Shown here: one piece after another, positions 23,701-62,500 of the stretch
Numbering within the stretch: the first letter of the stretch is position 1
Layout of the letters: each line of letters starts with the position of its first letter
The notes under the pieces: generated by a model
What the model saw: only the letters and a program-made list of their open reading frames with translations
The model's database searches: none
Told to the model about the DNA's origin: nothing
Position numbers and translations under genes: made by a program
NCBI GenBank assembly: GCA_965178125.1
Contig: OZ237746.1
Location: forward strand, 1,116,001 to 1,180,000
Direction of reading: 5' to 3'
Source of the DNA: Bilabrum cf. latius
Taxonomy: Eukaryota
DNA length: 64,000 nt

Positions 23701-26700
23701 AGCCCGAGCCCGAGCCCGAGGCCCGGAGACAGCCCCGGCCCTCGGACGGGAGGACTCCTCGCCGGCGCTGAAAGTGGAGGAGCAGGAGCAGCGGGACAAG
23801 GAGGCAGCGGGTCCCTCGCCTCGTCCAGGAGCTCGCTGCCGGGGGATGCAGAATCCACCGGTGGATCGTTGAGCGAGGCCGGCAGCAGCTCGCTGATCCC
23901 CAGCGCGCGGCTGAGCGCCTCCGAGACCGAGAGCGACTCGGGGAACAGCGAGATGCTGGACCGGCTGGAGTCGGCCGCCCTCGGTGCCAGACAGGGAGCC
24001 GTTTCCTTCTGGGCGCAGTACCTGCTGCTGCAGACCACGGAGAGGAAGATGGCCCGCGCGAGGAGGGCGCAGCAGAGGCGCAGGCAGAGGCGAGAGAAAG
24101 ACCGGAGGAAGAGGCGGAGGAAGAGGCGGGCGGGGACGAGAGGTGGAGGGGGGGGCGGCAGGGGCAGGGAAGCGGGGCACAGCGCGCCGGAGACAGGTGG
24201 TAGAGAGGGGCTGGAGGAACACGGGGGTGCAGGAATTGGTGGCACAGGTCACCAGCACAGGTCCAGCTCCGGCCGCCTGCTGCAGGTGAGCTCTAGCTCT
24301 AGCTCTAGCCCCAGCCCCGACCCTATGTAGGGAGGACAAGGTGGGAGAGAGGGATTCGGAGCCGGGGGCTCAAGCGAAGACGCCCCGCAGTCCAGCCGCA
24401 TCGACTCTGGCACCTCTGTGGTGGACGGCAGCCTCCCCGCTGGGAGCCCCGCCTCCCTGGCCCTGCCCTCCAGCTCCCCGCTGAAGGGGCCCGGCCAGGC
24501 GCCTTTCCCGCTGGGAGAGAGCGCGCATGAACAGGGGTAGGGGCTGCAGCAGAGCCCCATGGATGGCAGGGGCAGGCCTCTGCTGGTCGGCGGATCTGGA
24601 GAGGTGGAAGTCGGTGGGAAGGGCTAGGGCGGGGGCCGGGAGGGCGCGGCTCTGGGCGGGTTCGCGTTGGGCGGGCCCGCGGCACCGGCTGGGGCCCGGG
24701 ACCGGGGCGCTGGTGCGGGCGAACTCGGTCCTTCGGGTGCAAGGCACGGTGGTGCAGGCGGTGGGGGCATCCTCGGGCTGGGCTCATCCCTTGTGTCCCT
24801 GCAGCCGTACCAGGAGGGCGCGCAGCAGGTGCTGCTAGCCGATGCGAGTGGGAGTGGGAGTGGGAGTGGGAGTGGGAGTGGGCAGTAGCAGGAAGTCCAA
24901 GATCGAGCAGCAGTCGCAATTCCAAGCACTGAGACTCGCTAGGGTCGGACGGGTGACCAGCCATAGGCAACGCCCGATGCAAGCACCTGCAAGCATGTCA
25001 GCAACAGCAGCAGAGCTATGGATGGCGGCTCGTCGACGGTGGTCCGCAGCATCTCGGACGGCAATCTCGCGGCCATGCAGGGACGCGCCCGCATCGCGCG
25101 CATCTCCGGCGACCCGTGGACCGACCAGACCGCGAGTGGCAGGGGCAGGGGCGGGCAGCCAAGCCTTCACCCCCTGGGCATGGGCATGGGCATGGTGTCC
25201 CCCATGCTCGGCCCAACCCCGACCTCGCTGCGTGGGGTGCAGCCCGAGAGCCGCCGTCAGGGGCCCGACCTGGAACTGGACATGGACTTGGACCTGGACG
25301 GCGACGCCCACGGGCTCAGCCTCACGGGGCCCATGGCCTCGGACGACCCTCGGCTGGGTGGGGTCAGTGACAGTGACAGGGACAGGGACGGGGACGGGGA
25401 CAGCAAGGGCCTCCTCGGCGCCGAGGAAGTTGGGGCGGTCCTATCGGGCGGGGGCGTGCAGCTGACGGGGCTGGCAGAGGCGGACCGCAGACGGGGCGTG
25501 CGCCGCCCGCCCACGATCCTGTCTGCTCTTTCGTCCATGTCCACGGGGAGATCCTCCGCCGGGTCACCCAGCGGCAGCCATTTGCACACACCGGGGGGCA
25601 GGGAGGGGGAGGGGGCATCGTCTGCGTCCTCGTCTGCGGTGGAGGGGAGGCCTCCATCCGGCCGAGGTTGGCGAGCTGGTGCTGGTGCTGGTGCTGGTGC
25701 TGGTGCTGGTGCTGGTGCTGGTGCTGGTGCTGGTGCTGGTGCTGGTGCTGGTGCTGGTGCTGGTGCTGGTGCTGGTGCTGGTGCTGGTGCTGGTGCTGGT
25801 GCTGGTGCTGGTGCTGGTGCTGGTGCTGGTGCTGGTGCTGGTGCTGGTGCTGGTGCTGGTGCTGGTGCTGGTGCTGGTGCTGGTGCTGGTGCTGGTGCTG
25901 GTGCTGGTGCTGGTGCTGGTGGCGCAGTGCCTGGCCCCGTGCGTGCTTCACCGCCTGCTGTGCCTCCTAGTCGGCTGGTGCTTGCAGCAGGCGCCGCTAC
26001 CACAGCCGATGGTGCTGCATCGACTCACGATGGTGGGGCTGCACTGCCAACCTTGTGCCTGACACCCACAGCGGACAGCGAGGAAGACCAGCGCGGGATC
26101 GGAGGCGCTGCAGGGGGTGCAGTCGCCGTCGCGGCTGATGAAGGTCGCTCGTTCGAGGGCAGGGCTGGAAGGGGACAGAGGCAGGTCCCGGCCGGTGCGT
26201 CTGCTTCTGCATCGATGCTGCCGGCCATGTCCCCGATGCTGTCTGGATTCGCTGGGCCCTCTGCCTCGGCTGCCGGCGATGCATCCATGCCCGCGCCTGC
26301 AGCAGCCTCGGCCTCTGGTCGTGGCCTACAGGCTGAAACTGGCACAGGCGATGGGCAGTCGCGATCGAAAGCAAGAACAGAAGACAGCACCTCGACCTCG
26401 GCCCAGGGCGCAGAGACAAGGCCCGATGACACCAACGCGGCCCGCCAAGGCCCGGAGAGCCCGCCCCGGCTGGCCCGCCCTCGCACTCGCGCCGGCGAAT
26501 CGACTTCCAGTGCGCGGCTGCAGGGGGAAGCGCAGCAGCCGCCGGTCATCGGCGCCTCTGTGCCGCCGCACCCGCAGAGCAGCCCCGTGGACACGACAGC
26601 CACCGCAGAGCCAGGAACCAAGCATGCCGGAGACAGAGGGGCCGACTTGACCAGCGAGAAGAAACCTCCATCGAAGAGCAGGTACGTGCCCCCATCCGCC

Positions 26701-29652
26701 CGCAAGCAGAGCGGCTCAAGGTACGTGCCTCCCTCCCAGCGCAAGAAGCAGCAAGCCGAACAGCTGGGCTCGGGGGATACCTTGCCGCCGCCCACGCCGC
26801 TGCTCGGGGCCATGGGGGTGCCGCAGGGCGCCATCGACGCGGAGGGCTCGCCGCTGGTGTCCGGGGCGCATGGGCAGGGGCTTGGTGTCCTTAGTGTCGC
26901 TGCTGCAGCTGCGTCCAGCACACAGGGCCAAGGCCAGGGCAAGAGCAAGTACCGGCCCCCGACTCGCCGCACTGAAAAGGGTAAGTCCTTCCTCGGGGCC
27001 ATCAAGGGGAGCGGGGCAGTGCCTGCAGCAGCCACCGACGACGCTGTCGGCGCGGGTACCCCCGCGTCCAGCAGCGACGATGGCCCCCCCTCTGCGGCGC
27101 TAGCCTTCATCCTGGGCGCCAAGGAACACACGGGGCTGCGGCTGTCTATGGAGGAGCCAGGCCCCGGCGGGGCCACTGTCACGGCGGCCACCACGGTCGC
27201 CCGCACGCAGCAGCAGGGAGCTTCGGGCCGGGCCAGAGCCATGTCCCCGAGGGCCGTGCTGGAGCGGGAAATGTACCCGGCGGGGGCGGCGGGGCGGGGA
27301 GCTGGGGTGCGAGGAGACGGAGGGGCCGCCTCGGCTGCCGCGGATCGGCGCGAGAAGGGGAAGGGGCGCGCAGGTGGTCCCGGGCGGGGCCGGCCTGGAG
27401 TCAGCAGCGGGCGGCTGCCCTCCTCCACGCTGTCCCTGCGGCGCGCGCGGCGGCGCAGGCGGGGCCTGTACAGCACAGGGGAGGTCCCTGGGATCGGCGT
27501 CTTGCCGCAGGGACCCGGGTCCATGGGCATGCGCGGGATCAAGCTCCTGCGGGCCGCCACGCGCCTGGAGCTCATCCCGATCGACCACGGGCTGTGCATG
27601 CCCGACGCCGACGTGCCCGACGCGCTGAACGACGTGAACTGCTCGTGGCTCTTCTGGCGACAGGCCAAGGAGCCCTTCAGCGAGGCGAGCCTGCAGTACA
27701 TTGCGGCGCTGGACGGGCGGGCAGACGCGCTGCAGCTGTGGAGGGTGTTCGGGCCGGACGGGGGCGCGGACGACATCAGGGACGCGGGCAGGGGGCCGGG
27801 AGAGGACGGGGCGGGGGCGGCGACCGCACGGCCCGCGGCCCGGGTGACGCGTGGCAGCATGCTGTGCCTGCGGATTTGCACGCTGCTGCTGCAGCTGGGC
27901 GCGTCTGCCGGGTTGAACCTGCACGAGATCGGCAGGTTGATGATCCGGGGGCCCACGTACTCGCAGGCAGACCTAAGGAGACCAGACCCCCTGTCTGGGA
28001 GCAAGCGGCTGGTGCTCAGGTACGGGGGGCCGCTGCCGAGGGATGCGGTTGCTAGGCACAGGGGTGGTCAAAGGGAGGGAGAGAGGCGGGGTGCTGCCAG
28101 TGGGTGGGCGCTGGCTGCAGGCGGGGATGGGGACGGCAGCGACTCGGCCCGTGCCAGTGCCAGTGCCAGTGCGGGCGGGAGCAGGCTGGAGGCGGGCTCA
28201 GGGGCCTCCACTGGGGGCATGAGCGGAGGCACCGGGGCCGACGTGCACAGCTAGGGGCACGGGCGCGGGCACGGTCACGGGCACCACCGGCTGTCCATCC
28301 GACTCCCCCGACTGGCCGACATCGAGCCGTACCTGGTGAACCCCCAGTACCAGCCCCCGGACCATGACCCAGACGGGGAGAGCGGGCCGTTGCGCAGGAA
28401 AAGGAGCAGGGGATCCAGCGCGGTCATTTCAACACCGACCCCAGCACCGACCCCCTCGCTGCTCGCAGGACACTCGGGTCCCGTGTGCGCCGAGGTGGGC
28501 ACGGTGGGTGCCTCTTCGACCACGGGTGCGGCGGGGCGGAGCCACTCGGGGTCTGGGGGCGGCACAGCGGGTGGCGGTGTGGGGGCGGGGGCGGGCCCCG
28601 GAGAGGACGAGGGCATGATCGGCGGGCGGCGGTGGTCGGGGCTGGAGATGGCCCTGGCGGGGGCTCGGCTGGAGCAGCACCGCCGCTGGGCCTCGAAGGC
28701 ACGGGCGGCGGCTGTGGCAGTGACGGGGGCCGGGATCACGTCCAGGGCCTCGCGCACGTCGCTTCAATCCATGGAGGAGGCCGGGCTTGAGCAGGGACAG
28801 GGGCAGGGGCAGGGGCAGGAGGCGACCGGTCGGGGTGGAGCAGGCGAGGAGGCGGCCCACTCGAGTGCATGGGGGAAGCACGGGCACTGGCACCAGCACG
28901 CCCGGCCTGTCTCTGCCTCCATGGACTCTGTGCCTGGGCTGGGACTGCCCGTCACGGAACCTGGGGATCAGGGTGCTGGAGCTGCCTCCTCCGTCCATGC
29001 GACCGGACCTGGACGCGCCAACAAGGACGAAGGGGAACAAAGGGAAGGGCCCTCTGCCAGGCCCGGGGCCAGGCAGCCGCTGATCCAGGCCCCCCGCAGC
29101 AGGAGCAGCAGCAGCCTACGAGTAGCAGGCCGGGGCCGTGTACCCCCCGGCGGTTCCAAGCTCCGAATCCAGGCGCAGGTGCAGGTGAAGGCGCCAGAAC
29201 GGCAGCAAGGGCAAGGGCAGGGGCAAGGGCAGGGGCAGGGGCAAGGGCAAGGCAAGGGGCAGGGCACTGTTGCATCGCAGTTCCCTACAGCTGCGGTCGG
29301 GCTAGTGGCGGGCCAGAGGGGTGGTGGGGCTGGCCATCTAGGTCGCAGCGCAGGCGCAGGGTCAGGTTCAGGTTTAGGGCTAGGGACGGGACCGGGCGAA
29401 TCTGGTGCCAGCGGGGCCGCTGGAGGGGACGGTGGCGGCAACGGCCAGCTGGCAACGCCGGGGGACCGCCGGTCGGCTGGACCAGTTGGACCGGAGACTG
29501 GGCGCCCGGGGGAGCCGAGCTTCCTGGAGGAGCAAGACGAGCTGGTGTATCTGTTCCGGCACGCGATCGAGCCCTTCCTGGCCCTGGCCATCGTCAGGCG
29601 GTCCGAGGCGGGCTCGTCCTCAGCGGCGGGGTTCCGCGGGATCTTCGGTTGA
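20758..29652 (+). CDS. Type II PI4-kinase (PI4K-gamma-like) of about 2850 aa with very large low-complexity insertions; exons 20758-20888, 20999-21170, 21400-29652
   Basis: GAYQLRD..VFK|PEDEE..NPRG, REAAAFLLDH..VPPT, KLGSVQLF, VHRIGILDVRLCNLDRNEDNILI, LIPIDHGLCMP and WLFWRQAKEPFS. The frame is open for 8.2 kb apart from TAGs; TGA stop. Exon 1 is tentative. Confidence 0.8.
25675..25920 (+). repeat. Perfect (GCTGGT)n hexamer microsatellite, about 41 copies, encoding (Ala-Gly)n inside the PI4K ORF
   Basis: Directly visible tandem repeat. Confidence 0.98.
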
Positions 29653-30191: not shown

Positions 30192-30385
30192 GTTTAAGCC
30201 AACATTGTTTGCGGTGTAATGCCTCGGGTCGAGTGCGGAGACGCTGCAACCGCTGCATTTTTCGAAAGGCTCCGGGTTCCCAGACATTGCTTGCCGAGTA
30301 AAGCAAAATATCAGCAGTAAATTTCAGTATATTTAATTGAATATGTAAGGATTCGCTGCTGCGTGCGTATCATCGCACCGCTGCC

Positions 30386-33265
30386 ATGCATTGCTTGGAA
30401 CACTGCAATGATGAGAGAGTTCGATTTGGAATGCCGATGCGCAGGCCGAGAAAGCGAGGCAGAACCCGCAAAAAAAAGCAAAGGCAACAAAAAACGGCGG
30501 CAGATGCGCGCAAAGAATTGTATCGTTCGCAGGAGGACAGGTTTTGGTCCACTCTTTCCTCTGAATGCAGAGGCTTCGAGCGCAATGTCGAGGCACTTCG
30601 GCGAGCCTGCGGTCTCGGCATGGGAAGCCGCCACCGGATCGTTGGCGCAACCAATCTGATTGAGCTTGGATCTACTGTACTGCTTCGTCTGATGGCGGGC
30701 GCGATCCGCCTTGGAGACAAGGGCGACCGTCCTCCTGTCCCCGGCACTCCGGACATGTGCGGCGAGTACGGCATGTTTTTCTGCGACATGTGCTCGATGC
30801 TGCAGGTGGACGAGCCCAGGCCCAGGGACGGCTTCACAGACATGGCCGCCCGCGACCAGCGTGTGGGCCCGAATCCCCTAGGCCCGGCCACTGTGTGCAT
30901 CACGGCAGAGGCCATCCGGCTCATGCTCGTCCGGGTCCGCATCACGAGCAACTACCTCTACGGGCCAGAGTTCGGGGACGGGCCCGCCCGCCTGTGGCTC
31001 CCCAGCATGCAGGACGGCCGCGGCTCGTTCCTCCGGCGGCCCCCCGCTGAGGCTCTCCTGCAGTGCCCTGCAGTGCCCCCCGCGGGGCCCATGCTGCAGG
31101 ACGAGGCCGGGTCCGAGTGCGACATCACCATGGCCTCGCAGTTCTCAGGGGCGTGCCTGTCGGCCTGGTCCATGCGTCCCACGGACGACACGGTGTGGAA
31201 CCACCACCCGAACGAAGAGCGGGTCGCGACACGAACCAGGGCAGGCAACCGCCACGCCGCGCACACGTTCTTCGAAGGGCATGAGGCTATGGTGCAGGTC
31301 GTGCCGGGCATGGCCCGATGGGTCAGGAGTGCGTTTTTCCCCGGCAAGGGAGCCATGGACTGTGCCAGGGGCATACCCAGGCCCGACCTCCCGCCACGCA
31401 TGCTCCCGGGCGCGCCCCTGCCCAAGCACCCCGCCACGGCGGGGGAGGCTGTTGGGTTCCTGGCCCCCATGCAGCTGCTGGCGGCCGCGTGCATGTACGG
31501 GGGCGCGGACGATCTGGCTGCGTACGAGCTGAGGAAAGTGAAGGGTGGCCATTCGATGACGATGTCGTCGCCGCACGAGGTGCTGCCCGTGGTGGGCAAC
31601 CAGTGCAGGGGTCGGCTGGAGACGATCTGCGGTGCGTTCTGGCTGGGCCTGCAGTACCTGGACATGCGAACGGAACAAAAGGGTGCGACTTCCTCCGGGG
31701 GTGACGGCGGGTCTGTCTCAGCCGGGCAAGGAGGAGACGTAGAGGGCGAAGGCGACGGCATGGCGGCCTGTGGCGGGTCAGAATCAGTAGGGAACGATGG
31801 GGGCAAGCCTGCAGAGAGCGAGGAGAAGGAACGCGGAGGCGCTGGAGACGATGGAAGGGAAAGGGAAGAGGGGATTGGGGCCGTACACCCGCACGCTGCA
31901 GCAGAACCCGCAAGCAGCGGAGCCGGTGCAGATGTAGCCGGTGCCGGTGACGCCCAAGCCGAAGCAGAAGCAGAATCCAGCGCTGCAGCATAGCCCGGCA
32001 GCCCATCCCAGCGGCCCATGGGTGCCTACCCGCAGCCGTCCGACTACCGCCTCATCCGCTGCATGGCCGAGCTCATGGACGGGGCTGCCATGGCCATGCT
32101 CTACCTGGCCATGCACAGGGCAGTGAGCAGGCAGGCGGTCACGGGCGAGACATGGCACCTGTACTTTGGTATGCTGCCGAACCTGCTGCAGGACTGCGTG
32201 GCATTCGAGACGAGGCACATGGGTCAGCTGGAGGACAGCGATGCGGAGGATGCCATTCCGTGGGCGCGCAAGTTCACAGGGCAGCTCAAAACCACCACCA
32301 AGGCGGCAGGCGTGGCCGATGCGTACCGTCTGCTGCTGCTGCAGACCGGTGGTTGGCACGACGGGATCCGCGCGGCCACCATGCGGAGGAAGGCCGAGAT
32401 GGAGAACAAGGACAAGGACAAGGACAAGGACGAGGCCGGGTGTGCCGGTGCCAGAGCCGGCGATGGAGACGGCACGAGTCGGGGTGGCGTGGCGCTGGAC
32501 GAATCTGGCAAGTGCCTCCTGGAGCGTGTCCTGGATCTGTGCGAATAGGGGCGATCCAGTGGGCTGGACGTGTTCAGCAGGGGGGCACTGGGTCGGGTGC
32601 TGGCGGCGGCCGTGTGGTATCATGAGGAGGATGATCTGTCGGAACACGCCGGCAGGCTGCGGACGGTGCTGGAGGACCTGTGGGGTGCGGTGGATGATTC
32701 ACTGAGCAAGTACGGGGGGCATGGGCTGGCAGGCATCACGGACATGCGTGTGGACGAGTACTCGGATGCTTAGGTGGCCGAGGATGCGAGGGTGGTGAGC
32801 AGCAGGAGCAAAGATGGAAAGAAGGGGTAGGAGGATAAGGTGCTGCCCGACCTGTCAGACAGGGGCAGTGGCAGGTGCGCCTCTAGGCCGATCGCAGGGT
32901 ACTTTATGCTGCAGCTCCCCACGCACGGGACCAGCGTGCAGCACTACGTGGGCGCGATCGAGCTGCACGCGGCATGCTTCCAGAGAGGCATGCAGAAGGA
33001 GGTGCCCATGCTGCCCAGGTCTGTGCACCTGGCCATGCGCGCCCCCCGCTTCAGGCACTGGGTCAAACAGTACGAGTGGCTGTGCGTGGATCCGCTGCGG
33101 CCGCCGAGCGAGGCGGGCAGGGGGAGGAGGACGGGGCGGTCTGCTCTTCGAAGGCACACTCTTTCGGTAGCAGCCGCGCTGAAGCGGCTCGTGAGCATCG
33201 TGTCGACGGATCGGGTCCTCGCCCTCTTGCGGTTCCGGCAGGCGGCGGTTGCGACCGCGATGTAA
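30386..33265 (+). CDS. Uncharacterised protein, tandem paralog A (basic NLS-like N-terminus)
   Basis: ORFs 30386, 32018, 32570 and 32840 are in one frame and are joined by TAGs; colinear similarity to paralog B; TAA stop. Start is uncertain. Confidence 0.7.
31319..31536 (+). repeat. 218-bp block duplicated at 34354-34571 between the tandem paralogs
   Basis: Base-by-base reading shows apparent identity from tgggtcaggagtgcg to gagctgaggaa. Confidence 0.9.
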
Positions 33266-33522
33266 TGCGCCTTGTTCGCAGCCGTTGGTTGTACGATACA
33301 GCCTGCGAAACTGCCTGCATCGCCTTTCGTCGCGTTTAGAATAATGTGAGGATTCGGTCAAAATTGCTAGTACTCGGAGCATGTCAGTGATTTTAGGGGA
33401 ACTGATACACTTGGCCGCCCAGTGAACAGCTTCGCAGGACTCGAAAAAGCAAGAAAGGCAAGTCAAAGACAAGGGCAAAACGGGAGTGGGCAGCTCCACC
33501 AGGGCAGCCTCGAAAGTACGTA

Positions 33523-36162
33523 ATGTTTCCCGAACAAGTTTCCATTGGATCAAAGACGTGGGGATTCCTGAAACTAGAGCGATCTTAGCTTCAGCAGCGA
33601 ATCGTTGATCTCAGGCACTGCATGAGGCTAGCGACAGGGCCTACGATGCCTTCGAACGAAAATATCAATAATTCATCCGATCCACGAATACAGTTTGCGG
33701 GTGTGGGCGGACTGCTGGGAGGATTCATGCGTCTGGCTTGTGGCCCACCGGGCACGGCCAGACCAGGGAAGTTCTCGGGCAGCCCTGGGCATTACAGCTC
33801 CGCACACTACTGTGCCTCGTATAATATGACTCGCCATAGATCGAATGAAGGGTACGATCAAATGGTAGCCGCAGACGGAGAGATCAACGACACGTGCTTG
33901 GGCCCGCCCACCGTGTGCATGACGGCTGAATCCATCCGGATCATGTTGGCCAGGTACATGGTAGAGACTAGGTTCCTGCACGGGAAGCAATTCGGCGACG
34001 CTTCTTCCCTGTGGCTGTAGCCACCGCGGAGGGCATTCGGCCGCTCCTGGCTTCCCTTCGAAGAGTTCCTGCGCTGCCCCGCAGCCCCCATGCGCGGCCC
34101 CACGCTGCATGACGGCCGCGGCGGGCGTCTCCCCGGCAAGCTGTCGCACCTCGTGTCCACCGCCGTGTGCTCGGCCTGGAGCATGCGGCCCAGCGACCGG
34201 ACCCCGTGGCTTGAATCATTCGTGGACGGGGGCTTCTGGGAGACATGGGACCCGGACGAGGGAGGCTCTGCCGTGCCACGGCGCATATTCGCTGACCACA
34301 ACCTGAACTACGGGAGGGAAGCAGCTCGGGCGTTCATGCCCGGGCTGATCGACTGGGTCAGGAGTGCGTTTTTCCCCGGCAAGGGAGCCATGGACTGTGC
34401 CAGGGGCATACCCAGGCCCGACCTCCCGCCACGCATGCTCCCGGGCGCGCCCCTGCCCAAGCACCCCGCCACGGCGGGGGAGGCTGTTGGGTTCCTGGCC
34501 CCCATGCAGCTGCTGGCGGCCGCGTGCATGTACGGGGGCGCGGACGATCTGGCTGCGTACGAGCTGAGGAACAGCATGAAGCGCAGGACAAAGGAGCACA
34601 GGCCGAGACCAGAGGCTGACGACTACAACTACTTATCCGAGTACGAGTGCGACATGTACGAGCGCATGGGCTGCGACCCGGATGACATGGTGGACTCGTA
34701 CGGGTACGGGGGGGAGGAGCCGGAAGATCCCGACGATGAGTCGCTTGGACTGTCGCCGGACAGACACGGTATTACAGCCACCAATGCGCTCAAGAGGCTT
34801 GAGACAATCTGCGCGGCATTCTGGCTGGGCCTGCAGTACCTAGACATGCGAACCGAAGCAGGGCGGTCAGCAGCAGCTACAGCCCAAGGAGCAGCAGGGG
34901 GGCATTCATTGGCAGCTACTCCTTGCGAGAGTGGTGCAGGCAATGGTGGTGCGCCGGTGACTGGCAACGATGCTGCAGCTGGGGCTGCTTCAGCTGCCAG
35001 CCTGCACAGTTCTGTGGGTGCCTACCCGCAGCCGTCCGACTACCGCCTCATCCGCTGCATGGCCGAGCTCATGGACGGGGCTGCCATGGCCATGCTCTAC
35101 CTGGCCATGCACAGGGCAGTGAGCGGGTAGGTGATCAAGGGCGAGACATGGCACCTGTACTTTGGTATGCTGCCGAACCTGCTGCAGGACTGCGTGGCAT
35201 TCGAGACGAGGCACATGGGTCAGCTGGAGGACAGCGAGGCGGAGGATGCCATTCCGTGGGCGCGCAAGTTCACAGGGCAGCTCAAAACCACCACCAAGGC
35301 GGCAGGCGTGGCCGATGCGTACCGTCTGCTGCTGCTGCAGACCGGTGGAGCGATGGACAAGCTTCGAGAGGCCAGTGGGCCTGTGAGTGCTGCCGCCTCC
35401 ACTGGCAGCGGAAGGATACCGCTGGGAAAACTGCACCAGCCCCTGCCATCCACTGGCAAGCTTGCTGGGGGCGAGTAGACCGGGGCAATGCCGCTTGCTG
35501 CCGTTGCTGCGCCTTGCAAGTGCCTCCTAGAGCGTGTCCTGGATCTGTGCGAATAGGGGCGATCCAGTGGGCTGGACGTGTTCAGCAGGGGGGCACTGGG
35601 TCGGGTGCTGGCGGCGGCCGTGTGGTATCATGAGGAGGATGATCTGTCGGAACACGCCGGCAGGCTGTGGACGGTGCTGGAGGACCTGTGGAAGCACGCA
35701 GATGACTGGATCATGACGAATGGCGGCCATCCGCTGGCGCGCCCGTATGGCCCCGCCGCACAGGCCGGTGCACCCTCCGAGAACTACCCCAGGCCCGCGT
35801 TTCTGATGCTGCAGCTGCCCACGCACGGGACCATTGCGCAAGGCATCGTAGGGGCGATCGAGCTGCACACAGCGTGCATGGACCGGGGTGTGGGCGATGT
35901 GCCGTGCCTACCGAGGTCGGTGCAGCTGGCCATGCGAGCTCCCCGCTTCAGGCTATGGGTCAAAACGTACGAGTGGCTGTGCGTGGATCCGCTGCGGCCG
36001 CCGAAAGAAGAGCGCAGGGGTCGAAGGAAGACCGAGCCTTGGCTCCGTGGATCCACGCTGTCGGTGGCAGCCGCTCTCAAGTCTCTTGTAGACAGGCGGG
36101 CGGCGGAGCGAGCGAGGTGCGTGGCGCTGTTCCGGTCAGCAGCGGTGCGCTCGGCCCTGTGA
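33523..36162 (+). CDS. Uncharacterised protein, tandem paralog B
   Basis: ORFs 33622, 34090, 35131 and 35578 are in one frame and are joined by TAGs. Shares GPxTVCxTAExIR, WVRSAFFPG..YELR, GAYPQPSDY..LLQTGG and WLCVDPLRPP with paralog A; TGA stop. Start is uncertain. Confidence 0.7.
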
Positions 36163-36354: not shown

Positions 36355-38133
36355 TCACTGCGCCCACGCAGCTCCCAAAATTCCGTCCACCACCACCTCC
36401 GGCTTGTCCAGCGGCATGCTCAGCGAGCAGTCTGCCGCGGTGCAGTAGTGGTAGGACGCGTTCCCCGACGCGTTCGCCACCAGCCGCTCGTCCGTCTGCA
36501 TGTAAGCGGTCAGTGCCATGCGCTCGTCACACTCCTCCTGTGTCTTGGCCGGGGGCTCGTCGTTGCAGACGGCTGCGCGGGTGCGGTTCGACATGATCTG
36601 CAAAATGGGCATGCCCATCGTCTCCGGCGAGGTCTCGTTGAAGATGCCCAGGTCGTACCTGTTGATCTCCTCGTCGTACTGCGGCTTGAAAGTGAACCAC
36701 TGCACCGTCCACGTCTTGGGCATCGTGTATTGGATGCGGTACTCGTCGTACCGCTCGGGCAGCGCGTACATGCTCTCGTTGGCGGGCACGAAGATGGGCG
36801 TCAGGCCCCACGGCACGGCCAAGCCCTGAAGCAGCGCAAAGATGATCCGGCGGCCCGCCAGGTCCTGGTCCTTGTACTCGTTCATTCTCTTCTGGCTCCA
36901 GCCCTTCACGAAAGCCTCCGACTTCCACTCGATGCCCAGGCTGAACGCCTCGATGAACACGAGCCCCCGGACCAGCTCGGGCGACCGCAGGGCAAACTCG
37001 TACATGATCCCGGCACCGCCGCCCCAGCCCACCATCACGGCCTGGTTGGCCCCTTCCTCCTCCAGCAGGTGCTCCACCAGCGGCTCGTAGTACGTCATCG
37101 GGTCCACGTCCTGCCCCACGCTGTACCGGTCCGAGAAGCCCAGCCCCAGCTTGTCGAAGGAGCAGCTGCGTCGGCCTGCCTCGGCGAGACGGGCCTGAAG
37201 AGGCCAGAAATCGGCGCTGCCGTGCGATGCATCCGCATCTATGATCAGCAGCGGGTGTTCCGGACCGGCCAGCGCGGGTCCCTCGCAGTAGTACATGACC
37301 TTCTTGGTCCCACTGGCCTCCCTTGCCTCCAGGTGCACGAACTGACCGCGGGGAGGGAACGAGGCGATCCAGTGGGCCTGCTGGATGGACGCGTTGGCGA
37401 GCAGGCACGAAAACACAAGTGCCAGGGCCATGTTCACCACCAGATACCATCCCAGGCAGCAGCACCAGCACGGCCGCTGCTCCGTGTCCTGCGCCTCGGG
37501 CGTGTAGCAGGGCAGCGACTGGGAGGGCCAGGGGCCCGACTGCGAGGCATTGGCGCTGGTTTGCGACTTGGAGACTTGGTTACCGCCGTTGACTGGGGCA
37601 TGCGAGTCGTACTGTCCTTCATCTTGCGTCATTGCTGCGCTCGCTTCCGCCGTGGCCGCCGGGTGCGGCGACAGCGGAGCAGCCATGTCACCACTTTGCT
37701 AGCTCTTTCCGGGTTCGTTGACGTAGACTTTAACCAGCGACACGCACAGCAGTGATACCGCCAGCGATGCCAGTACGAAATTGTCAAAGCGCTAGTATAT
37801 CGCCTGTGTGATGGCGATCACCAGCCAGATGGCAGCTAAGATGCCGTAGTACGCGCCCTGCAGCCCGCAGCAGGAAGATGCCGCCTGAATAGATCGTGCA
37901 GCATTGTGTGCTGCAAGCAGACCGAAGAAAAACACATGCGCCGCATACCATGTCGTGGTGCCCATGTCCATCACCAGCACTGGTCCGGCATTGGCGACAT
38001 AGGCTGCCGATACAGTGGCGTACACAACCCCAAAGACAGAAAAAAGCAGCCCACCATACCAGGCAATTTCGTTGATCATGTGTGTAGGAGCTAGCGATGT
38101 GAGAAGGTACTCCTAGGGATGCGGAAGTGACAT
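36355..38133 (-). CDS. Multi-pass membrane protein with C-terminal alpha/beta-hydrolase fold
   Basis: The hydrophobic ORF 37792-38079 continues through TAGs (37792, about 37699) into ORF 36355-37686, which carries CSFDKLGLGFS, VMVGWGGGAG and VRGLVFIEA; TGA stop. Confidence 0.75.
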
Positions 38134-38294
38134 ACCCGCATCGCTCCCAACTTGAAAAATCCAACGGGCATTTCGCGGCAAATTTTCGCCGAATGGAAGG
38201 GGAACGCTCCAGAACTTTCTGCGAATCTTTCTGAACTATCAAATTTGAATGATGAAGACTTACAACGTGGCATGATCGGCCAAACACTGCCAAA

Positions 38295-41243
38295 ATGGGC
38301 GTCTCGTCCCTGTACTACGGGTTTTCGTGGGCGATTCGTGCGATAAGCATACTATCTATATCATACATTCATCCTGATGAGATTTTCTAGTCGGAAGAAA
38401 TCGCAGCTGGATGGATCAACCGGGACAGCGTGCGGGTGCCATGGGAGTTTGCGAATTCAAGCGCCCCTGCACGCTCCATCGTGGTCCCTGCGCTGGTCTC
38501 GGCCGGGCCACTATGGGTATCAGGGCTGATTTCCTCAGTCACTGCCGCGGTCGTTGGAGTTACTCACCAATTGTGGCTGCGTCGAGCCTGGTGCGTCGCT
38601 CTCACAGGACTGTGCGACGCATGCATCTGGGTAGCCTGCAGGAATGTCCGGGCGGATCCGCTCCCATGTCTCGCCATATTTGCATCGTGTTGGCCAGTGA
38701 TTGTGTTTGGAGGACACGCGTTCAGCAACACGTTGGAGGCGACCGTCGTAGCAGCTGCGATCGCATGTGTCGCATGGTATCTCCGCGCAACTGCAAATTC
38801 CGGTGCGCGCTTCACGGCACCACAACAACAAAGCAGGCAGGCAGTCGCTGCTTTGATTGGTATTGGGGGTGTAGCAGCTCTAGGGTGTGCCGTACGCATC
38901 TCATTTCCCGTGTTCGTTTCGGGGTTCGCGTGCGTGTCCCTCGGCGCCCTGTGGCTGCACGGTGCGGAATCTTCTTCTCGGGACAAAGGCACGCCCAACT
39001 CGGAAAAAGCCTCACCAGATCCGCAAGAAGTCAAGAAGGTCGATATAGGCATGCCGGTGATTGGCGATGCGAGGCCTGTTGATTGCGGCTGCTCGGCGCT
39101 GGCACGCATCGCGTGGGGAACCTGCTTGGTGCTCGTTTCCTTCGCCGCCACGACGCTGGCCATCGCAGTCGCGGATTCTATGGCTTGGGGCACTCTACAT
39201 ATTCCATATTTGCAGTCAGGTGGTCAAGGAGAAGAAGGGCTGGAGCACGCCGCCGTGCGCCCCGCTCTCCCGGTTCCTGAGGACGCCACGTCGCCCGCGC
39301 CCTCCGTCGAGCTGGCCGCGCTGGGGATCCCGGGGAACATCGGCACCGGACGCATCGTGTTTCCTACCCTGGGCAATCTGCTGTACAACCTGGACCCGGC
39401 CAAGACGGCCACGCACGGGCTGCACCCCCGCTGGACGCACGCCGCCGTGAACCTCCCCCTGCTCTTCGGGCCGGTGGCTCTCCTGTTCGCATGGAACGGG
39501 GCCCTCCTGTGCGCGCGGCTGCTGCGGGCCGGCAGCCTGCTCCAAGCCACCCGCGTGCTCCTGCGGCGGCCCCTCCGCAACGGCGCCCTCCTCTCCGGCG
39601 CCGTGTCCCTGGCCGTGCTCTCTGCAGCCAACCACCAGGAGGCCCGCTTCCTCGTGCCCATGGCCGTGCTCGTAGGGCTGGGCTGCGGGGAGTCGCTGAT
39701 GCCGGGGAACAAGAAAGGGGGTCAGAGGGACAGCCGTGGGCGAGGGGGCGATCAACAGGATGAGGATCAGGCAGCTGCCCCGCCCACGCCCACGCCCACG
39801 CCCACGCCCACGCCCACGGGGGGGGATGACTTGGACGTCGACATGGCCCTCCCCGGGATGCTGCGCGGAGTCTTGCTGGCTGCGTGGATGCTCACGAATG
39901 CGCTCGGCGTGGTGGGCTTCGGGTGGCTGCACCAGGGTGGCGTGCTGGCGGGGGCAGCAGCGGCGGGGAGGCGGGTGATTCTGGAGGAGCTGGCGAGGGC
40001 CGTGGGGGGCAGCGCTGGGGAACTAGAGGAGGAGGATAGGGGGGGGAGCGAGAGGGGCTCTGTGGTCGGTGTGATGGAGGACGAGGGGGCTTCTTCCCTC
40101 GCGATAGATGGAGGGCAGGTGGATGCCCATGGGCTGGGCAGCAGTGTGGGGATCGGGCTCGGCGGCGCGGCGGCGGCGGCGGCGGTGCTGTCCCAGATGG
40201 GCGGCAGCAGCATCGGGACTGTGCTGAGCTACAGCTCCTACACGCTGCCCAGGCACAGTGTGACGAGTGGATGGAACAAGGACTTCTCTGGCGCAGGCCT
40301 GGGCATGCTGCGGTCGGGTGCGATGGAGGAGGTGGGCGGCGGAGGCATGGACTTGGACACGGACGTGGGCGTGGGCGGGGACCTGGAAGGGAAAGGGAAT
40401 GGCGCGAGGCTGCTGATGGTTGACGCGGCCTCGCCGAGCGTGCACCGAGCATTGTAGCTCGAGTGCGCGAGGGAACCGAGGGAACAGCGGGGTGGGGGGA
40501 GCTAGCAGGCCAGCGGTAGCGAGTCAGAGTCGGAGTCAGCGTCAGCGTCAGGCTGCATCAGCGTGCCTCGGTGCGCGGGCCCTTTCTGCGACTCTAGGTT
40601 CAGGCACGACCTGAGCTTTGAGTCGGGATCTGGCTTGGATGACACCGCGAGGGGCATGGCCAGAGGCGCGGAGGGCGGTGAACAGGCGAGGTAGCCTGCT
40701 GTGTCCACGCTCGGGTTCCTAGCCTCTGGCGTGGGTGGGGGAGCCAGGGCGATCGAGATCGTGGACGTGGATGGTCCGGACGAGGGTTCGCTGCGGTTCC
40801 ACCTGGAGCGGTCGCTGTTCGGCGGCGCCGGGCTCTTGGACTCGGAATCGAGTGCCAGCGCCAGTGCCGGTGGTCATCCAGGGGCCGGGGATGAGAACCC
40901 CGCCACGCTTGTGCTGGCACCCGCCTCCGTCAGGTTGCACGTGGAGGGGGCGGCCAAGGGGGCCTGTCACGCGCACGACAGGTCAGCTGTGCTCCGGCGG
41001 CTGGAGAGCGTAGGGCCTCATTTGTCTGGGGAGGCGCCCCCTCCTCTGGGCCGCGCCCTTGCTGCCAGGCTTGGCGCGGCGTGGGCTGGAGCTGGAGCTG
41101 TGGGCCAGGGTCAGGGCCAGGGCGCTGGAGAGGGCGTGAGTGGGCTGCTCGAGGCGGCGGGGCGTGGGCTGCGGGAGGACTTGAAGGTGGCTGAGGAGAC
41201 GCTGTGGCTGGACGTGTGGAGGGTGCACTGCGAGGCAGTTTGA
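38295..41243 (+). CDS. PIGZ: GPI mannosyltransferase 4 (PIG-Z/Smp3, GT22)
   Basis: SYIHPDEIF(TAG)SEE, PWEF, FSNTLE, NLLYN..HGLHPRWTH..VNLPLLFGP, HQEARFLVP and FGWLHQGGV; four TAGs; TGA stop. Confidence 0.9.
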
Positions 41244-41488
41244 TTCGATTCGATTCGATGCGATGCGATGCGATGGAGGACACGCCTGTGCGGCAGGCGT
41301 GTCCTCTGGCGGAGGAACGCACAATGACCGGGCACGATTCCGCGTGAATACAAAAGGCGCATATCTGTAATAATATTTTGTTTTGAGCAGCAAGACTGGG
41401 CGGTGCGCTGCTGTGGTGCGCCAAAAGGAGTGTGACGAGCTCCATTCGACCCAATCTTGACGCGCATTGTATTCACTCTGCTGGCGGA

Positions 41489-48832: not shown

Positions 48833-51800
48833 TCACTTGCTTCTCTTCAGCCCGACTCCAGGCCGGCGCTTACCACCGCTCGATGTACGCACCAGCCCGA
48901 ATCCGAACAGGGTTCCCTTGGCCGACACCGAGCTGGGGCTCTTCCTGCTCGTACCTTGCTTGCTCCCTCCCGTGCGGCCCAGCAGCAGTCCCGCAGCTGG
49001 GCTTGAACTGCGCGCACCGCCTGCCGGTCGCACAAGCCCCACGCGAGGCCTAGCCTTGGGTCGGGCTGGCTCCGCCACCTCGACCTTCGCTCGGGGTTCC
49101 AGGTCGGATTCATCTCCATCTCCCGTCAAGTCTTCCACCTCGGATGATTCGGACCCCGAGTCGCTGCGGCTGCCATCGACCGCATTGGCTCTGTTCACCC
49201 CCACCGCCCGCATGGCTTCCTGGATGGAGGTGGGCCTGCGGCCAGCGACGCGCGGGAGAGTGGCCTCAGCAGCGTCTTCATCCAGGGTTATTACAACGGA
49301 GGATGAAGACGAGGATGACCTTGCTGACACAGGGCGGTTGCTTCCATTGGCGCGCTGTGGCGGTGGCCTGGCCGAACCAGAAGAGTCCGCTGCGCCGCTA
49401 CCACCGGCCGACATCATCGCCATGAACCCGCCATCGTCCCCCTCCATGGCATCCTATTCAGCCGAGAGACCAGCGGGCGCAGACAAAGGAGCACCGCGGG
49501 CAGCCCCTCTTCCGGGGCTGGTGGTGACTTTGAACACGGACTGCCCTTGCTGAAGCGCTGTGCGTGCCACCTGGGCTGCCCCGTATCCACCAGCAGATCC
49601 TGCTGCCGCCGCCTTCGAAAATGGTGAAGGCAGGGCAGGCGCGCCCGGCATGCGCGGTAGCTTGCCCCGAAGCTCCTCGGGGTAGCGGATGCGGGCCAGC
49701 GAGCTGGGATGCACCTCGCCAGCCGCCACCCTCCTGGCCAGGACGGGGTCCGCGAAGTCTCTCCCGAAGGCAGCCCTGACCAGCTCTGCGATGGTGGCGA
49801 TGCGGGCCGTGGTACCGGGAGAGGCGCCAGTGGGACCCGCCGCCGCTCGATCCACAAAGGACTAGGACTAGGACTAGGACTGGAATTGAGACGAGGACAC
49901 GGGCTGGCTACTAGCCGAGAAGAACGACTGCACCGCTTGCTGGGGCTGGGGCACGGAGGCCTGGCTGGCCACCTGATTTCCGCTGAGGCTGGAGCTCTCC
50001 GCGATGAGTCGCTGAGAGGAAGTCGCCAGCGCGTCCCGCTGCTCGCTGCGCCGTGCATGTGCCTGGGCGGCGGCACTCGACACCGGGGTGTGCCGGGCCC
50101 CCAGCGAGTGGCGCCCCGTGGCCGTGGCTGCCTCCTATCCCAGGGGGGGCACCCTGAAGAAGCTCGAGATGGAGGACGAGGATGAGGCACCCTTCGGCGG
50201 CGGTTCGCTGCGACTGCGCTTCTTGTCGGGCTACTCCTGCTCTTCGTCTCTGTCACGGTTCGAGGCGTCATTCTAGTCCTCTTGACCGCTCGGTGGGGTG
50301 CCGTCTGCGGGTGCTTGGTCAGCTGCATCGCTGATAGCTGCTGCTGCGCTGCTCGAAAGGTCATGACTCGATACAACGCCCGGCGCCTCACCGCCAGGTG
50401 TGGTCTTGGAGGAAGAGGAAGGGGATGAGCCCGAGGTCTGGGCAAGTCTGGCCAGCGCGGCGGCGGCAGCTCCCCTTCGGCTGCGGCGACGGGCAGGTGC
50501 TGCTGTCGAGGGCAGTGCATCTCGCGGTAGTATATCTTGATCGATGGAGTCTGCTGGCCCATTGCGCGCCCTTGGGTCGCTGACACCATTCCTTTGAGCC
50601 TATTCATGGCCTGGGGACCCAGACTGAGCCTCTGCAATTGCGGCATGCTCGGAAGCATCGTCACCGCCACCGTCGCCCTCGCCCTCGGAACCGATCCCCA
50701 CGCTCTCCACTTCGTCTTCCATCAAGACCTGGCCCCGCTCCTACCCTGAGCCACCCCTTGTACTCTCTGCAGGGAAGAGATTCTTGCGAATGTCTTGCGG
50801 GCCAGGCCCCTTCGTACCCCCACCGCGCAGCCCATCCAAGGATGCTAACCCGCCCCTGTCAACTGCTGCTGAGCCCGTGTCTGCACCAGCAGCCGCTGCC
50901 TCCTGTATGATCCCCGACACGCTGCCAGCCATCGCTGAGGCTGGCTCCATGCCTGCCCCAGCTCCCGCCTCGGCTCCTGCCCCTGCTCTGGGCCTCACCT
51001 TGCTCTGGGTCTAGGGGGTCGACAAGTAGGACGAACCGTCCCCAGCCGACTGCCCCTGCACAGGGGAGATGCCCAGCTGGCCAGCGCCGTCATCGCACTC
51101 ACCCCTGGCAGCAGCAACCCCCGCAGACGCAGCCGCTGATGCCGGCACGATCGACTTGGTCTCTGACGCGAGCGGGCCAATCGCTCCCGCCACTGCTCCA
51201 TCCGTTGAAAACACCGTCGCCGATTCCTTGTCCTGGCCAGCAGTCAACGCCACCCCACGACCGGATCCCTGCTGGCTGACCCCTCCCATGAGCGGCCGCA
51301 TGGGGGTTAGCAAGATGGCCTGCCGCTGGCTGGGCACGGGCGTCAAGAAGGCGGCCACCTGCGCCCGCGGGTCGTAGACCACATGGTGCAAGAAGCAGCT
51401 CTCTGCCATCCTGAACCGCATTTCGTAGTCCACCGGCACCTCTACGACCTTCTTCGCATTGCCGCCCCTCCTGCGCTTCTTCCCCAGCCCCCCTGCTGCC
51501 TTCTGCCGCACGGCAGCCACCACCCTCAGCACCCTCTTGTCGTCCTCCGTGTCCCTGTACCTCCACACGAGCTCGGCGGCCGACACGGTGCCCACCCCCG
51601 GCAGCGAGTTGATGTAGTCGCACCCGCTCAGCACGCACACCTGAAGGAACTGGCGTGCCGTCAGCCGCCGCATGATCCGCAGGAACTTGCTGCTGCCTGC
51701 CAACCGGCCGGCGGTGGCCGCTACAGCCTTGCTCCCGCCACCTTTGCTCCCGCCGCTGTTGCCCTCACCACCACTCGTGGCGTGTTTCGAGCCTTGCGTA

Positions 51801-53555: not shown

Positions 53556-53620
53556 TTATCTTCGTCCCTCGCTCCCGCCGTCCTCCTCTTCTCGGATGAC
53601 CTCTGCCTCCACCACACCTC

Positions 53621-53683
<63 letters not shown>

Positions 53684-59545: not shown

Positions 59546-62500
59546 TCATGTGCAACCCACCAGGTCCGACCCAGCAGCCACGGAGCGAATGGTCGCCGAC
59601 AGGCTGGTGCCCGGCAGCCTCGTGTTGAGGGTCCCGCGGCACCCCAGCGCCCCGCAGCGGCAAGGGGCCACGCCCTCCCCCCGCGGGAACGAGTAGTCGT
59701 ACGTCAGCTCCTCGCCCACTGCGATGTCTCGCGAGGCATAGAAAAACATCCGGCCCAGCCGCACGGGGGGACGAGGAGGGCATGCCCCTGTCCCACCGGC
59801 AGGGAGCTAGCCCTAGCCCTAGCCCTAGCCCTAGTTCCTGCCCACCTGCAGCCGCAGCCGCAGCCGAGGGCTCACAGGGGACAGCGCCCGGACGCCTTCT
59901 TCCTCGGTCACCAGCTGGGGAGGCAGCAGCTCGCATTCTGACTCCGGGTCGTGACCTGGAGGCGGCTCGAACGAGGCCCCGCTGGGAGCGTCGATGAGCC
60001 TGTTGCCCGCGTAGCCTGACACAGCAGAGGCAGGGGCAGGGGCAGAGGCAGCTGCCCGCTGGCCCTCTGCCTGCATCCATGCCTCCTCAACCTCGTGGTC
60101 GGACAGTGTGTTGATGGCGTAGCAGTTCGGCTCGCAGCTGTGGTTGAGGTACCTGGCCGTGCACCCCGCCGTGGTGGCGTCGATCACCGCATCTGGTCCT
60201 GCCCTGAACATGTAGTCAGCCATGCCGTGAGCCTCGTACTCCCGCTGCCGCTTGGCCGCTTCTGCGTTGGAGACCACCTGCCCCTTGTACTCCGCGATCA
60301 CGTCGTTCTTCTAGATGTCCCTTGTGGCGAACAGGCCCAGCCCGTCGATGCGGGAAGCGCCCACTCTCAGGTGGCGCAGGTTCCACTGGGCGCGCCTCTG
60401 CGAGCAAACAAGACAAGGAAAGCACAGGAACCAAGGACAGAGGATGAAGAAATCGAGGAGGAGGCAGCGATGGAGCCAGAGACGCAGTTGGGATGATGCA
60501 GGGGAAGGCGTCAAAGGGCCACTGAGGGAGAAACAGAGAAACAGCGAGACACGATCGTTCCGACTCACCGCAAGAAGCGACACTGGCGTGAATTTTTCAG
60601 GGGCAGCCGCCCCCCTGCGGTGCCGCACGAAGTCCACCACCACAGGCCCGTAGTCCGGCAGCCTGGTGGACGCGAACTGCTCCAGCCGAGGGTGGATGCG
60701 GCTGCTGGCCTCCCCGCTTAGGGGGGCGCTGGCGTGCTGCAGGAATGTGGGAGCGTCGTTCACGTCGTGCGACGGACCCGATGAGCTACCTCCTTCTTGC
60801 ACCGCGCAGTCGCTGTGCATTTCCTCCCTGATGCGAGCCGCGAGCAGCGGCAGCCTGGATTGGAGCCTCGCCATCTCGGCGGCCTGGCCCGCGGGCATCG
60901 TCCTGCTCGACACTGCCCCGCCGCCGCTCGTGCCCCCGGGCGGCCGCATGCTCGCCAGAAGGGCCTCCCGCTGCGACTCGGCCACGGCTGCCAGCGCGTC
61001 TGCCTCCAGCTGGTCGAGTCCGTCCTCGCCGACGGGGAACTACGTGCCCTTGCCTTCTGTCGCAGAGCCACGTTCCTCGCTTCTCACTGTGCCTCCGTGT
61101 CCGCCTGCCTCTTCGGCGTGGGCTCGAGAGAAACACGCCTGTGCCTGAGCATACCCTCTCAGTGCGGCCTCTTCCGCCTCCGCCAATCCCACCACCAAGT
61201 CCTCCTCGGCGGGTGCAGCGAACTGCAGCATGGCCTCCAGACGGACGTCCCCCGCGGCGAGGAGCGGGAGGTTGGTTGCGGCCGTGGAAGGACCCCCGTG
61301 ATGCCCCTGCTGCAGGCCCCGTGCGAGCAGGGCGCTGACGGGGCGCTGAGGGCCGTGCAGCAGGATACAATTCACTGCAGCGTCGTGGAGCTGCAGCGCA
61401 GACGGGCCATCCGCATCGCCCCACAGCCCCGTTCGATAGTTCCTCCCGAGGGCGAGCGCGTAGCTGGCGACGGGGGGCGTGTCTGGGCCAATGGCGTGCT
61501 TCTGGTCGGGGGAGCCTGGCGCCGGCGGTCCTCCGCTGGACCCCTTATTATCGTCACCACCGTCAGCAGCACCTTGGCCCTGGCCCTGGCCCCTCAAGAT
61601 GTACTGCGTCCCTTTCGGCCCCAGCACCATGCAAAGGAAGGGACTGGACAGGAGAATCCGGGCTGCGCTGCGCTGCTGCTCGACCCCGCTGTCGCCAGCA
61701 CGGCTGTCCTCGCCATCACCAGCTGCTGACCCCCCGTCATCTTCTGCGTCCAGCTTGCATGCGGCAGCCACCGCTTGCATGCATCCCTCCCACCCGCCCG
61801 CGAGGTCACAAGCCACGGCAGGGGCGACATCGCCCAGCACGCGACCCCCATGCACCCGATCCGCAGCCAGCATCAGCACGTCGTGCCGAACCAGGTCCCG
61901 GAGGCAGCGGGCCGTGCCCAACCACGACCACGCGGGCGGCACAGCACCCTCGGCACCCTCTCCATGCGCCACCTTCCCCTTCCACTGCCTCTGCAGCCAA
62001 GCAAATTGCTCCCCCCACAGCTGCCGCACCGCCGCACACCTGGCACACGCCAGCCGGGCCGACCGCACGGCCTGCTGCCGCAAGAGCACAGCGGCCGATA
62101 CGCTCGACTGCACCAGCTGCCCCGTCGGCAGCATGGCCGTCACCGCTAGACCCTCCTCGCACACGTGGTGGTGCCCGTGCAGGCAGGACTCGCAGGTCAC
62201 GGGGGCCCCCGAGGCGAGGAAACACCCCATGTGGGGGTCTCTCGCCGCGCTGGGGGTACGGGACAGCAGCACGAGCTGCCCCGGGTTCATGTCGTTGGCG
62301 GGCAGGCCACGCAAGAAGGGAAGCAAGTGCTGCCCGGCGATCCGACCCAGCAGCTCCAGAGCCTGCGACTGAACGTCCTGTTGCTGCGAGCCACTGCTGC
62401 TTCCCGATGACACTGACGTATCGGCGCTACTACCACCACCACCGCCACCACCTGTGTCCCATCTCTGGACAAGTGCCCCGGCCAGGGCACCCACGGTGGT

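Follow-up and report, generated by a model that had tools for sequence, protein, structure and literature searches.

In the 64,000-nucleotide stretch of contig OZ237746.1, deposited as Bilabrum cf. latius, that was analyzed here (the window), TAG is very probably an ordinary sense codon, most likely for Gln, with translation terminated by TGA (mostly) and TAA; the same best explanation, held jointly and with the same confidence, takes the window as nuclear DNA of a GC-rich, gene-dense, and intron-poor eukaryote with eukaryotic genes. The GC content of the window is about 65%, ranging from 62 to 71%. The evidence centers on a gene for a family 22 glycosyltransferase (GT22) of the PIG-Z/Smp3 type, in which the TAG at 38388-38390 would supply the invariant Gln of the HPDExFQ loop. 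The features of this gene are as follows:

38295..41243, plus strand: whole coding sequence of the PIG-Z/Smp3-like GT22 mannosyltransferase, from ATG to TGA, 982 codons with 4 in-frame TAGs and no intron detected.
38370..38387, plus strand: H-P-D-E-I-F, written CAT CCT GAT GAG ATT TTC, the first luminal loop's acidic DE signature together with an aromatic residue.
38388..38390, plus strand: the motif TAG, codon 32 counted from the ATG at 38295-38297, in the invariant Gln column; TAG stands at the same column in loci L001 and L002 of a relative.
40455..40457, plus strand: second in-frame TAG, with conserved C-terminal sequence after it; the alignment with the relative's locus L003 runs past it.
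40503..40505, plus strand: third in-frame TAG, inside a low-complexity insert.
40692..40694, plus strand: fourth in-frame TAG, from the translation of the frame.
41241..41243, plus strand: TGA, the real stop of the GT22 gene; the relative's gene also has TGA at the aligned end.

The codons that the first-pass annotation had read at the motif, TAC ATT CAT CCT GAT GAG ATT TTC TAG TCG, are present at 38364-38393. Read through TAG, the frame extends over 995 codons from 38256 to the TGA at 41241-41243, with TAGs at 38388, 40455, 40503, and 40692; under the stops of translation table 11, the open reading frame (ORF) terminates at TAG 38388 and a new ORF of 688 codons begins at 38391. With HMMER, 1.84 billion representatives were searched and 950 homologues obtained at E ≤ 1e-3, of which 418 reach E ≤ 1e-10, and the residues of the motif column were counted in the best 150 of the 950, with those of at least 400 residues (n = 142) taken as full-length. 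The H.DE pattern occurs in 139 of these 150 best matches, and Gln follows three residues past the Glu in all 139. Seven of the other 11 carry variant motifs (HPDG, QPDE, HPDQ, YPDE, and FPDE), each with [FY]-F-Q next in line, three are fragments that lack the N-terminus, and one (P0069) is without the region. In the MAFFT alignment of the 150 matches the column holds Gln in 146 sequences, a gap in 3, and Lys in 1, and in the full-length homologues Gln in 141 and Lys in 1; the lone Lys is most likely the misaligned P0069, which is without the N-terminal motif region.

The check that the first-pass annotation had proposed, conservation of Gln in an alignment of homologues, thus came out in its favor: the column is neither variable nor dominated by another residue. 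Its preference for Gln over Leu, Tyr, or Glu also agrees with the alignment, in which Leu, Tyr, Glu, and Ser are absent from this position in all homologues. A narrower alignment of 36 sequences contains 21 invariant columns including that of residue 32, and the window protein retains the expected residue in the other 20 of 20; D28 and F31 are invariant and H26, P27, and E29 nearly invariant. In addition, the spacing from F-Q to P-W-E-F in the window protein is identical to that of the family, and there is therefore no room for an intron at the motif. The motif TAG had been called the most residue-specific evidence for the meaning of the codon, and the description holds, this being the sole TAG of the window in an invariant column. 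No other single site in the window speaks as strongly on which residue TAG encodes; the mechanism of decoding lies beyond the reach of this evidence.

The frame is continuous on both sides of the motif TAG, with the motif 5′ of it and the GT22 domain continuing in the same frame 3′ of it, and a divergent relative has the same arrangement. We scanned metagenome contigs with P0003, the one close database match, as the query, and three loci (L001, L002, and L003, with GC contents of 55-59%) were returned. L001 and L002 hold the N-terminal part of the orthologue, which reads S-S-Y-V-H-P-D-E-I-F-TAG-S-S-E-M-A-TAG-G-Y, and L003 holds the C-terminal part. The window protein and the GT22 of the relative share 304 identities over 632 aligned residues (about 48%), with 309 of 582 for the C-terminal part on L003, and the orthologue alignment passes all four TAGs of the window and reaches residue 992 of the 995-codon frame. 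The gene order is common to the window and the relative, with a PI4K-like gene, a hydrolase gene, the GT22 gene, and a RhoGAP gene. With in-frame homology extending to either side of the TAG in two species, the TAG is read through. Around the motif, 6 of the 11 neighboring codons differ only synonymously and the TAG is unchanged; since a divergent relative retains TAG in this column amid synonymous changes, the codon cannot be put down to a nonsense mutation, a sequencing error, or an intron.

The TAG was also read in contigs from four public sequencing runs of three studies, of which X1 is DNA and X5-X7 are only guessed to be RNA, with X6 flagged as "probably DNA". The contigs of the four runs read TAG and are colinear with the gene apart from repeat regions, with no differing letters and no joints. 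Those of the three guessed-RNA runs cover all four TAGs without differing letters or joints, which counts as a weak hint; X5-X7 have no cover at 38118-38297 and at about 39811-40061, and these parts carry no evidential weight.

The pattern extends across the window. We scored 18 long frames, comprising 18,256 codons, which are stop-to-stop ORFs and not curated gene models. They contain 87 in-frame TAGs, found in 17 frames out of the 18 and with a density of 4.8 per 1000 codons, a count that is an upper bound since introns are present among the stop-to-stop frames. TAG is not avoided in frame, with 87 compared with 70-114 in each of the five other frames; TGA and TAA occur 93-254 and 19-28 times per off-frame reading, and both are at 0 in frame. 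Fifteen of the 18 frames end at TGA and three at TAA, and no frame needs TAG as its terminator. When TAG is taken as sense, the longest frame measures 2825 codons instead of 1095, and 31 frames instead of 13 have at least 500 codons; when TAA is taken as sense, there is almost no change, no pair of supported genes is merged, and none is split at TAA. TAGs lie within or between Pfam domains (in GT22, in SET, and between XPG_N and XPG_I) and also in the PI4K gene, and the base after TAG is distributed like the base after CAG.

TAA apparently retains its role as a stop. Were it a Gln codon as well, the CAA:CAG ratio of 126:571 would predict about 19 in-frame TAAs for the 87 TAGs, compared with the 0 observed, and the stops of two tandem paralogues (A and B) are aligned to each other as follows:

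33263..33265, plus strand: TAA at the end of paralogue A, opposite the TGA stop of paralogue B (36160-36162) in the alignment, which is evidence for termination at TAA.

The absence of in-frame TAA and this alignment of a TAA with a TGA stop therefore indicate a UAG-only change, and the pattern appears not to be that of codes in which UAR (UAA and UAG) stands for Gln.

As to which residue is encoded, we strongly favor Gln, mainly on the invariant column of the GT22 gene. Further sites bear on the choice:

35128..35130, plus strand: TAG in tandem paralogue B, aligned in a conserved block to CAG 32132-32134 of paralogue A.
49864..49884, minus strand: (CAG TCC)(TAG TCC)×3 repeat in the EXO1-like gene, in which CAG and TAG alternate in one (Gln-Ser)4 repeat.
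59809..59835, minus strand: (TAG GGC)×4 and then a fifth TAG in the SET-domain gene, a dipeptide repeat that is written CAG GGN elsewhere.

CAG also stands opposite TAG at two well-aligned columns of the PI4K orthologue (RGPTYS-Q/TAG-ADL and VSLQPY-Q/TAG), and repeats of CAG GGN are found at eight places, including 41106-41122 in the GT22 frame. By its neighbors, TAG resembles Gln most closely (profile correlation r 0.59, the next best being 0.22). A calibrated naive-Bayes classifier of codon context likewise placed Gln first; it called held-out real Gln codons Gln in 187 of 200 cases and real Glu, Lys, or Ser codons Gln in at most 4-5 of 200, and placed Glu 3.6, Ser 7, and Leu 12 log units below Gln.

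Several observations weigh against TAG as Gln, or against the weight that the motif can bear, and they are gathered here. One column alone cannot fix the meaning of a codon, and the motif column is the only invariant column with a TAG in the window. The TAG in the same column of the relative is probably inherited and hence not independent, and the second TAG in the GT22 gene of the relative (L002 9164-9166, plus strand), six codons past the motif TAG, stands in a column where 107 of 142 homologues have Ala and none has Gln. Introns or leaders may contain part of the 87 TAGs. The classifier gives Lys almost the same score as Gln, and every log-likelihood is slightly negative. At the window TAG 56883-56885, an importin-like relative of 97% identity has Glu, and another of 69% identity has Asp or a gap. 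The TAG of the SET domain lies opposite Glu in 4 of the 4 alignments shown (KMT2C and KMT2D constructs), in a column that looks variable, and the column of the TAG in the DAO gene reads E, K, K, K, and Q in alignments with structures of the Protein Data Bank (PDB), which is uninformative. The TAG of EXO1, opposite Asn in the PDB alignment beside a variable basic stretch, is equally uninformative, and the C-terminal region of PI4K gave no PDB matches. At the six orthologue sites with a flank identity of at least 8/12, the partner is Gln twice and Arg, Ser, Leu, and TAG once each. Among the 31 non-TAG orthologue partners, Ala (7) and Gly (4) lead, because of low-complexity sequence, and Gln is found 3 times.

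Some observations at single sites would agree with Glu, as UAG or UAR is read in peritrich ciliates and Blastocrithidia, and the PIG-Z protein would then have Glu at the Gln column. Besides the Glu of the close importin-like relative and of KMT2C/D, the best DAO match has Glu at the TAG column, and some TAGs lie in acidic runs such as SDEEE-TAG-EEEEE, the share of Glu neighbors being highest for TAG (0.104). However, exchange between Gln and Glu is among the commonest substitutions, and Glu partners are thus expected under TAG as Gln too. With 0 of 142 homologues having Glu at the motif column, CAG and not GAG opposite TAG at 3 well-aligned columns, and the context score for Glu below that for Gln by a classifier that called real Glu codons Gln in at most 4 of 200 cases, we regard Glu as improbable, the least so of the alternatives.

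A sense codon for another residue, namely Ser (reportedly so read in Scotinosphaera), Leu (so read in the rhizarian exLh and in some ciliates), Lys, Tyr, or others, is very improbable. Precedents for UAG to Ser and UAG to Leu exist (PMC11687900), the TAG-GGC and TAG-TCC repeats are also plausible as Ser-Gly and poly-Ser tracts, and the single Ser, Leu, and Arg pairings at well-aligned sites and the near tie of Lys point the same way. Against these stand the motif column, with no Ser, Leu, or Tyr and with one Lys that is in all likelihood an artifact of P0069, the three CAG-TAG pairs, and the low standing of Ser and Leu in context.

An ambiguous code, in which TAG is a stop and also, by context-dependent readthrough with a near-cognate tRNA-Gln and no dedicated suppressor tRNA, a codon for Gln, has precedents in Condylostoma and the karyorelicts. 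ARAGORN found 0 tRNA genes in the window and L001-L003, a total of only 80 kb searched, which agrees with such a code. However, 0 of the 18 frames end at TAG, TAG occurs in frame as often as in the other frames, and the following base is that expected after CAG; we therefore hold this alternative to be highly improbable. That TAG is untranslated, by a CAG-to-TAG pseudogene mutation (a single transition), a sequencing error, an intron, or RNA editing to CAG, is scarcely credible, given the same TAG in the divergent relative among synonymous changes, the conserved sequence downstream as far as the aligned TGA, the number of TAGs and of frames that carry them, the motif spacing, and the agreement of four runs from three studies, and its mutation, error, and intron versions are already contradicted.

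The first-pass annotation had also called the gene a GT22 member of the PIG-Z/Smp3 kind, and this call is supported, for GT22 by the Pfam match and the ALG9/ALG12-like fold, and for a probable PIG-Z/Smp3 kind by the names of the nearest homologues. The PF03901 (Glyco_transf_22) match has an E value of 2.9e-35 and 122.7 bits compared with a cut-off of 23.8, in 2 stretches. The AlphaFold2 model of the first 496 residues has a mean predicted local distance difference test score of 82.8 and a predicted template modeling (TM) score of 0.86, with an N-terminal helix at residues 5-20, then a loop, and a helix bearing H26-P27-D28-E29-I30-F31 and residue 32. In the fold search, the best PDB matches of the model were human ALG9 (E 6.6e-5, TM-score 0.53/0.48) and chicken ALG12 (TM-score 0.50/0.51), with other GT-C enzymes ranking behind them; a PDB sequence search with the GT22 protein returned no GT22 chain, and the fold search alone reached GT22 structures. 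With a GT-C multi-helix fold and a transmembrane helix followed by a luminal DE loop, the protein belongs to GT22. The DE motif has been described both in PIG-B and in PIG-Z (PMC6056205).

For the subfamily, 20 top matches were looked up, and the only subfamily-specific name among them was "GPI mannosyltransferase 4" (GPI, glycosylphosphatidylinositol), given to P0018 (cluster member P0275) and P0023; the remaining matches had generic names or none, and none was called PIG-B, ALG9, or ALG12. The motif x-P-D-x-x-F-Q is common to all of the top 150 matches that have an N-terminus, and we take it to be specific to the PIG-Z/Smp3 subfamily. The best GT22 matches come from Picozoa, Amoebozoa, and early-diverging fungi, at identities of at most 42%; no sign of a ciliate or of a metamonad was seen, no test aimed at this having been made. 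Word-index homologue searches were thin, with 1 match for the GT22 query and 2 for its alignment. Judged by match names and motif, the product is predicted to be a PIG-Z/Smp3-like GT22 mannosyltransferase, putatively GPI mannosyltransferase IV, encoded by what looks like an intact and expressed gene. GPI mannosyltransferase IV transfers an alpha-1,2 mannose, the fourth of the GPI precursor, from dolichol-phosphate-mannose in the lumen of the endoplasmic reticulum.

The window protein shares with PIG-Z/Smp3 the Pfam match, the first transmembrane helix followed by the luminal HPDE-x-F-Q loop, all family-invariant residues, a GT-C fold whose nearest solved structures are ALG9 and ALG12, and neighbors named "GPI mannosyltransferase 4". 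In contrast, it has about 980 residues instead of the usual length of about 550, because it has low-complexity inserts (PT, GQ, and SE repeats) and because its conserved C-terminus is preceded by a long linker.

By analogy with other lineages that read UAG as Gln (PMC5304391), UAG would be read by a tRNA-Gln with the anticodon CUA, most simply derived from tRNA-Gln(CUG), which reads UAG and not UAA, and the release factor eRF1 would have a lost or weakened recognition of UAG. By the reasoning of the same paper, no decoder other than a tRNA with a CUA anticodon would read UAG and leave UAA unread. The window contains no eRF1 gene. The reassignment of UAG alone to Gln, with UAA and UGA as stops, is recorded for Iotanema spirale (PMC5304391) and, among ciliates, UAG alone stands for Gln in Protocruzia tuzeti, Hartmannula sinica, and Trochilia petrani (PMC11687900). 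As in the Iotanema type of code, the window has homology on both sides of TAG, TAG at a conserved Gln (in a small sample), and TAA as a terminator and not as sense, and a decoder tRNA with the anticodon CUA is implied in the window as in Iotanema and these ciliates. They differ in that UAA is their main stop, whereas the window has TGA at 15 of 18 ends and a GC content of 65%. Taken as a whole, the window pattern of UAG as Gln with UAA and UGA as stops matches NCBI table 15.

In the codes of the NCBI table 6 type, with UAR as Gln, TAG is likewise read as Gln, but TAA is sense, which it is not in the window; such codes are recorded for many ciliates, hexamitin diplomonads, Streblomastix, ulvophycean green algae, and Amoeboaphelidium protococcarum (PMC11687900, PMC5304391, PMC6299283, and PMC2984419). 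The genomes of Amoeboaphelidium, furthermore, have a GC content of about 40% (PMC10608142) compared with 65% in the window, and its annotated proteins are absent from the matches that were looked up; Amoeboaphelidium was rejected as the source on these grounds. The codes with UAG as Leu (the rhizarian exLh and some phyllopharyngean ciliates) and as Ser (Scotinosphaera) share with the window the change of UAG alone with UAA as a stop, and so does an uncultured ciliate with UAG as Glu, Blastocrithidia having UAR as Glu; in contrast to all of these, the invariant Gln column and the CAG-TAG pairs point to Gln here.

The finding is a further instance of the known reassignment of UAG to Gln, in a setting that differs by its GC richness and by TGA as the main stop. 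Reassignments of nuclear stop codons are rare, and changes of UAG with UAA still a stop are rarer; those on record in the literature consulted are one fornicate, one rhizarian, a green alga, and a few ciliates. No GC-rich, non-ciliate lineage with UAG as Gln was found in the literature searched, with subscription journals and supplementary files outside its scope. A GC-rich lineage whose genes end mainly at TGA would offer independent information on how UAG is told from UAA by a tRNA(CUA) and eRF1. We tentatively raise the possibility, short of a reading that we would favor, that the window and its metagenomic relatives (97% and 69% identity in public runs, with at least two species of about 50% protein divergence sharing the trait) represent an undescribed GC-rich clade outside the ciliates and metamonads that independently uncoupled UAG from UAA, with UAG as Gln and UGA as the main stop. 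If true, a rare code variant would have arisen anew, in a composition opposite to that of the AT-rich lineages known for it. In practice, gene callers that apply the standard code cut the genes of this organism at every TAG, and re-annotation with TAG as Gln is needed; the database copies of the GT22 of the relative are fragments, P0003 with 336 residues and P0019 with 126 residues, the latter beginning just after the TAGs.

Pfam matches at E ≤ 0.01 were obtained for 4 of 9, 4 of 7, and 4 of 7 frames in three scans, with the GT22 match additional. The families in the window are Pkinase, GH88, Suc_Fer-like, Pyr_redox, PI3_PI4_kinase, alpha/beta hydrolase, RhoGAP, XPG, Arm, DAO, and SET, and an LRR match fell below its cut-off. 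In the protein atlas, the neighbors of GH88 are mostly Ascomycota and those of the importin mostly Chordata, from which no useful placement emerged. The importin-alpha-like gene (55485-57086, plus strand) encodes a divergent ARM-repeat protein whose named homologues have at most 41% identity, and its relatives of 97% and 69% identity are in the run assemblies; the Pfam scan reported no IBB domain in this frame as read. The tandem paralogues (30341-33265 and 33406-36162, plus strand) match no Pfam family. They are identical at 478 of 1059 aligned columns and have long blocks of 100% amino-acid identity, possibly from gene conversion, between unrelated low-complexity inserts.

The frame at 21175-29652 (plus strand) is a single one of 2825 codons with 13 TAGs and a PI3/PI4-kinase segment near residues 565-615; its conserved C-terminal part, common with L002, lies beyond huge low-complexity tracts that include an (Ala-Gly) run of about 45 units. 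The frame at 53556-55190 (minus strand) contains 20 consecutive Gln (poly-Leu when read from the other strand), matches no Pfam family, and ends at TAA. In the kinase frame at 743-3403, the kinase domain is represented by its C-terminal half alone. Just upstream of SET in the frame at 59546-64000 (minus strand), at about 60330-60450, a Cys/Phe/Leu/Pro-rich, pyrimidine-rich stretch looks like an open unspliced intron. From the half kinase domain and this stretch it follows that introns exist and that the stop-to-stop frames overstate the coding sequence.

At the 5′ side of the GT22 gene, the short region at 38118-38294 is a divergent intergenic region between the minus-strand hydrolase gene and the GT22 gene. 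The contigs of X5 and X7, from two studies, both stop at 38117, and that of the DNA run X1 continues, which at best hints weakly at the end of a transcript. At the 3′ side, one contig has a non-templated run of A after 41373, about 130 nt past the TGA, where the genome differs, and this is again a weak hint. The sequence TGTAATAA at 41366-41373 (plus strand) stands directly before the start of the A-run, and the two may be a polyadenylation signal and site. TGTAA is the polyadenylation signal of green algae.

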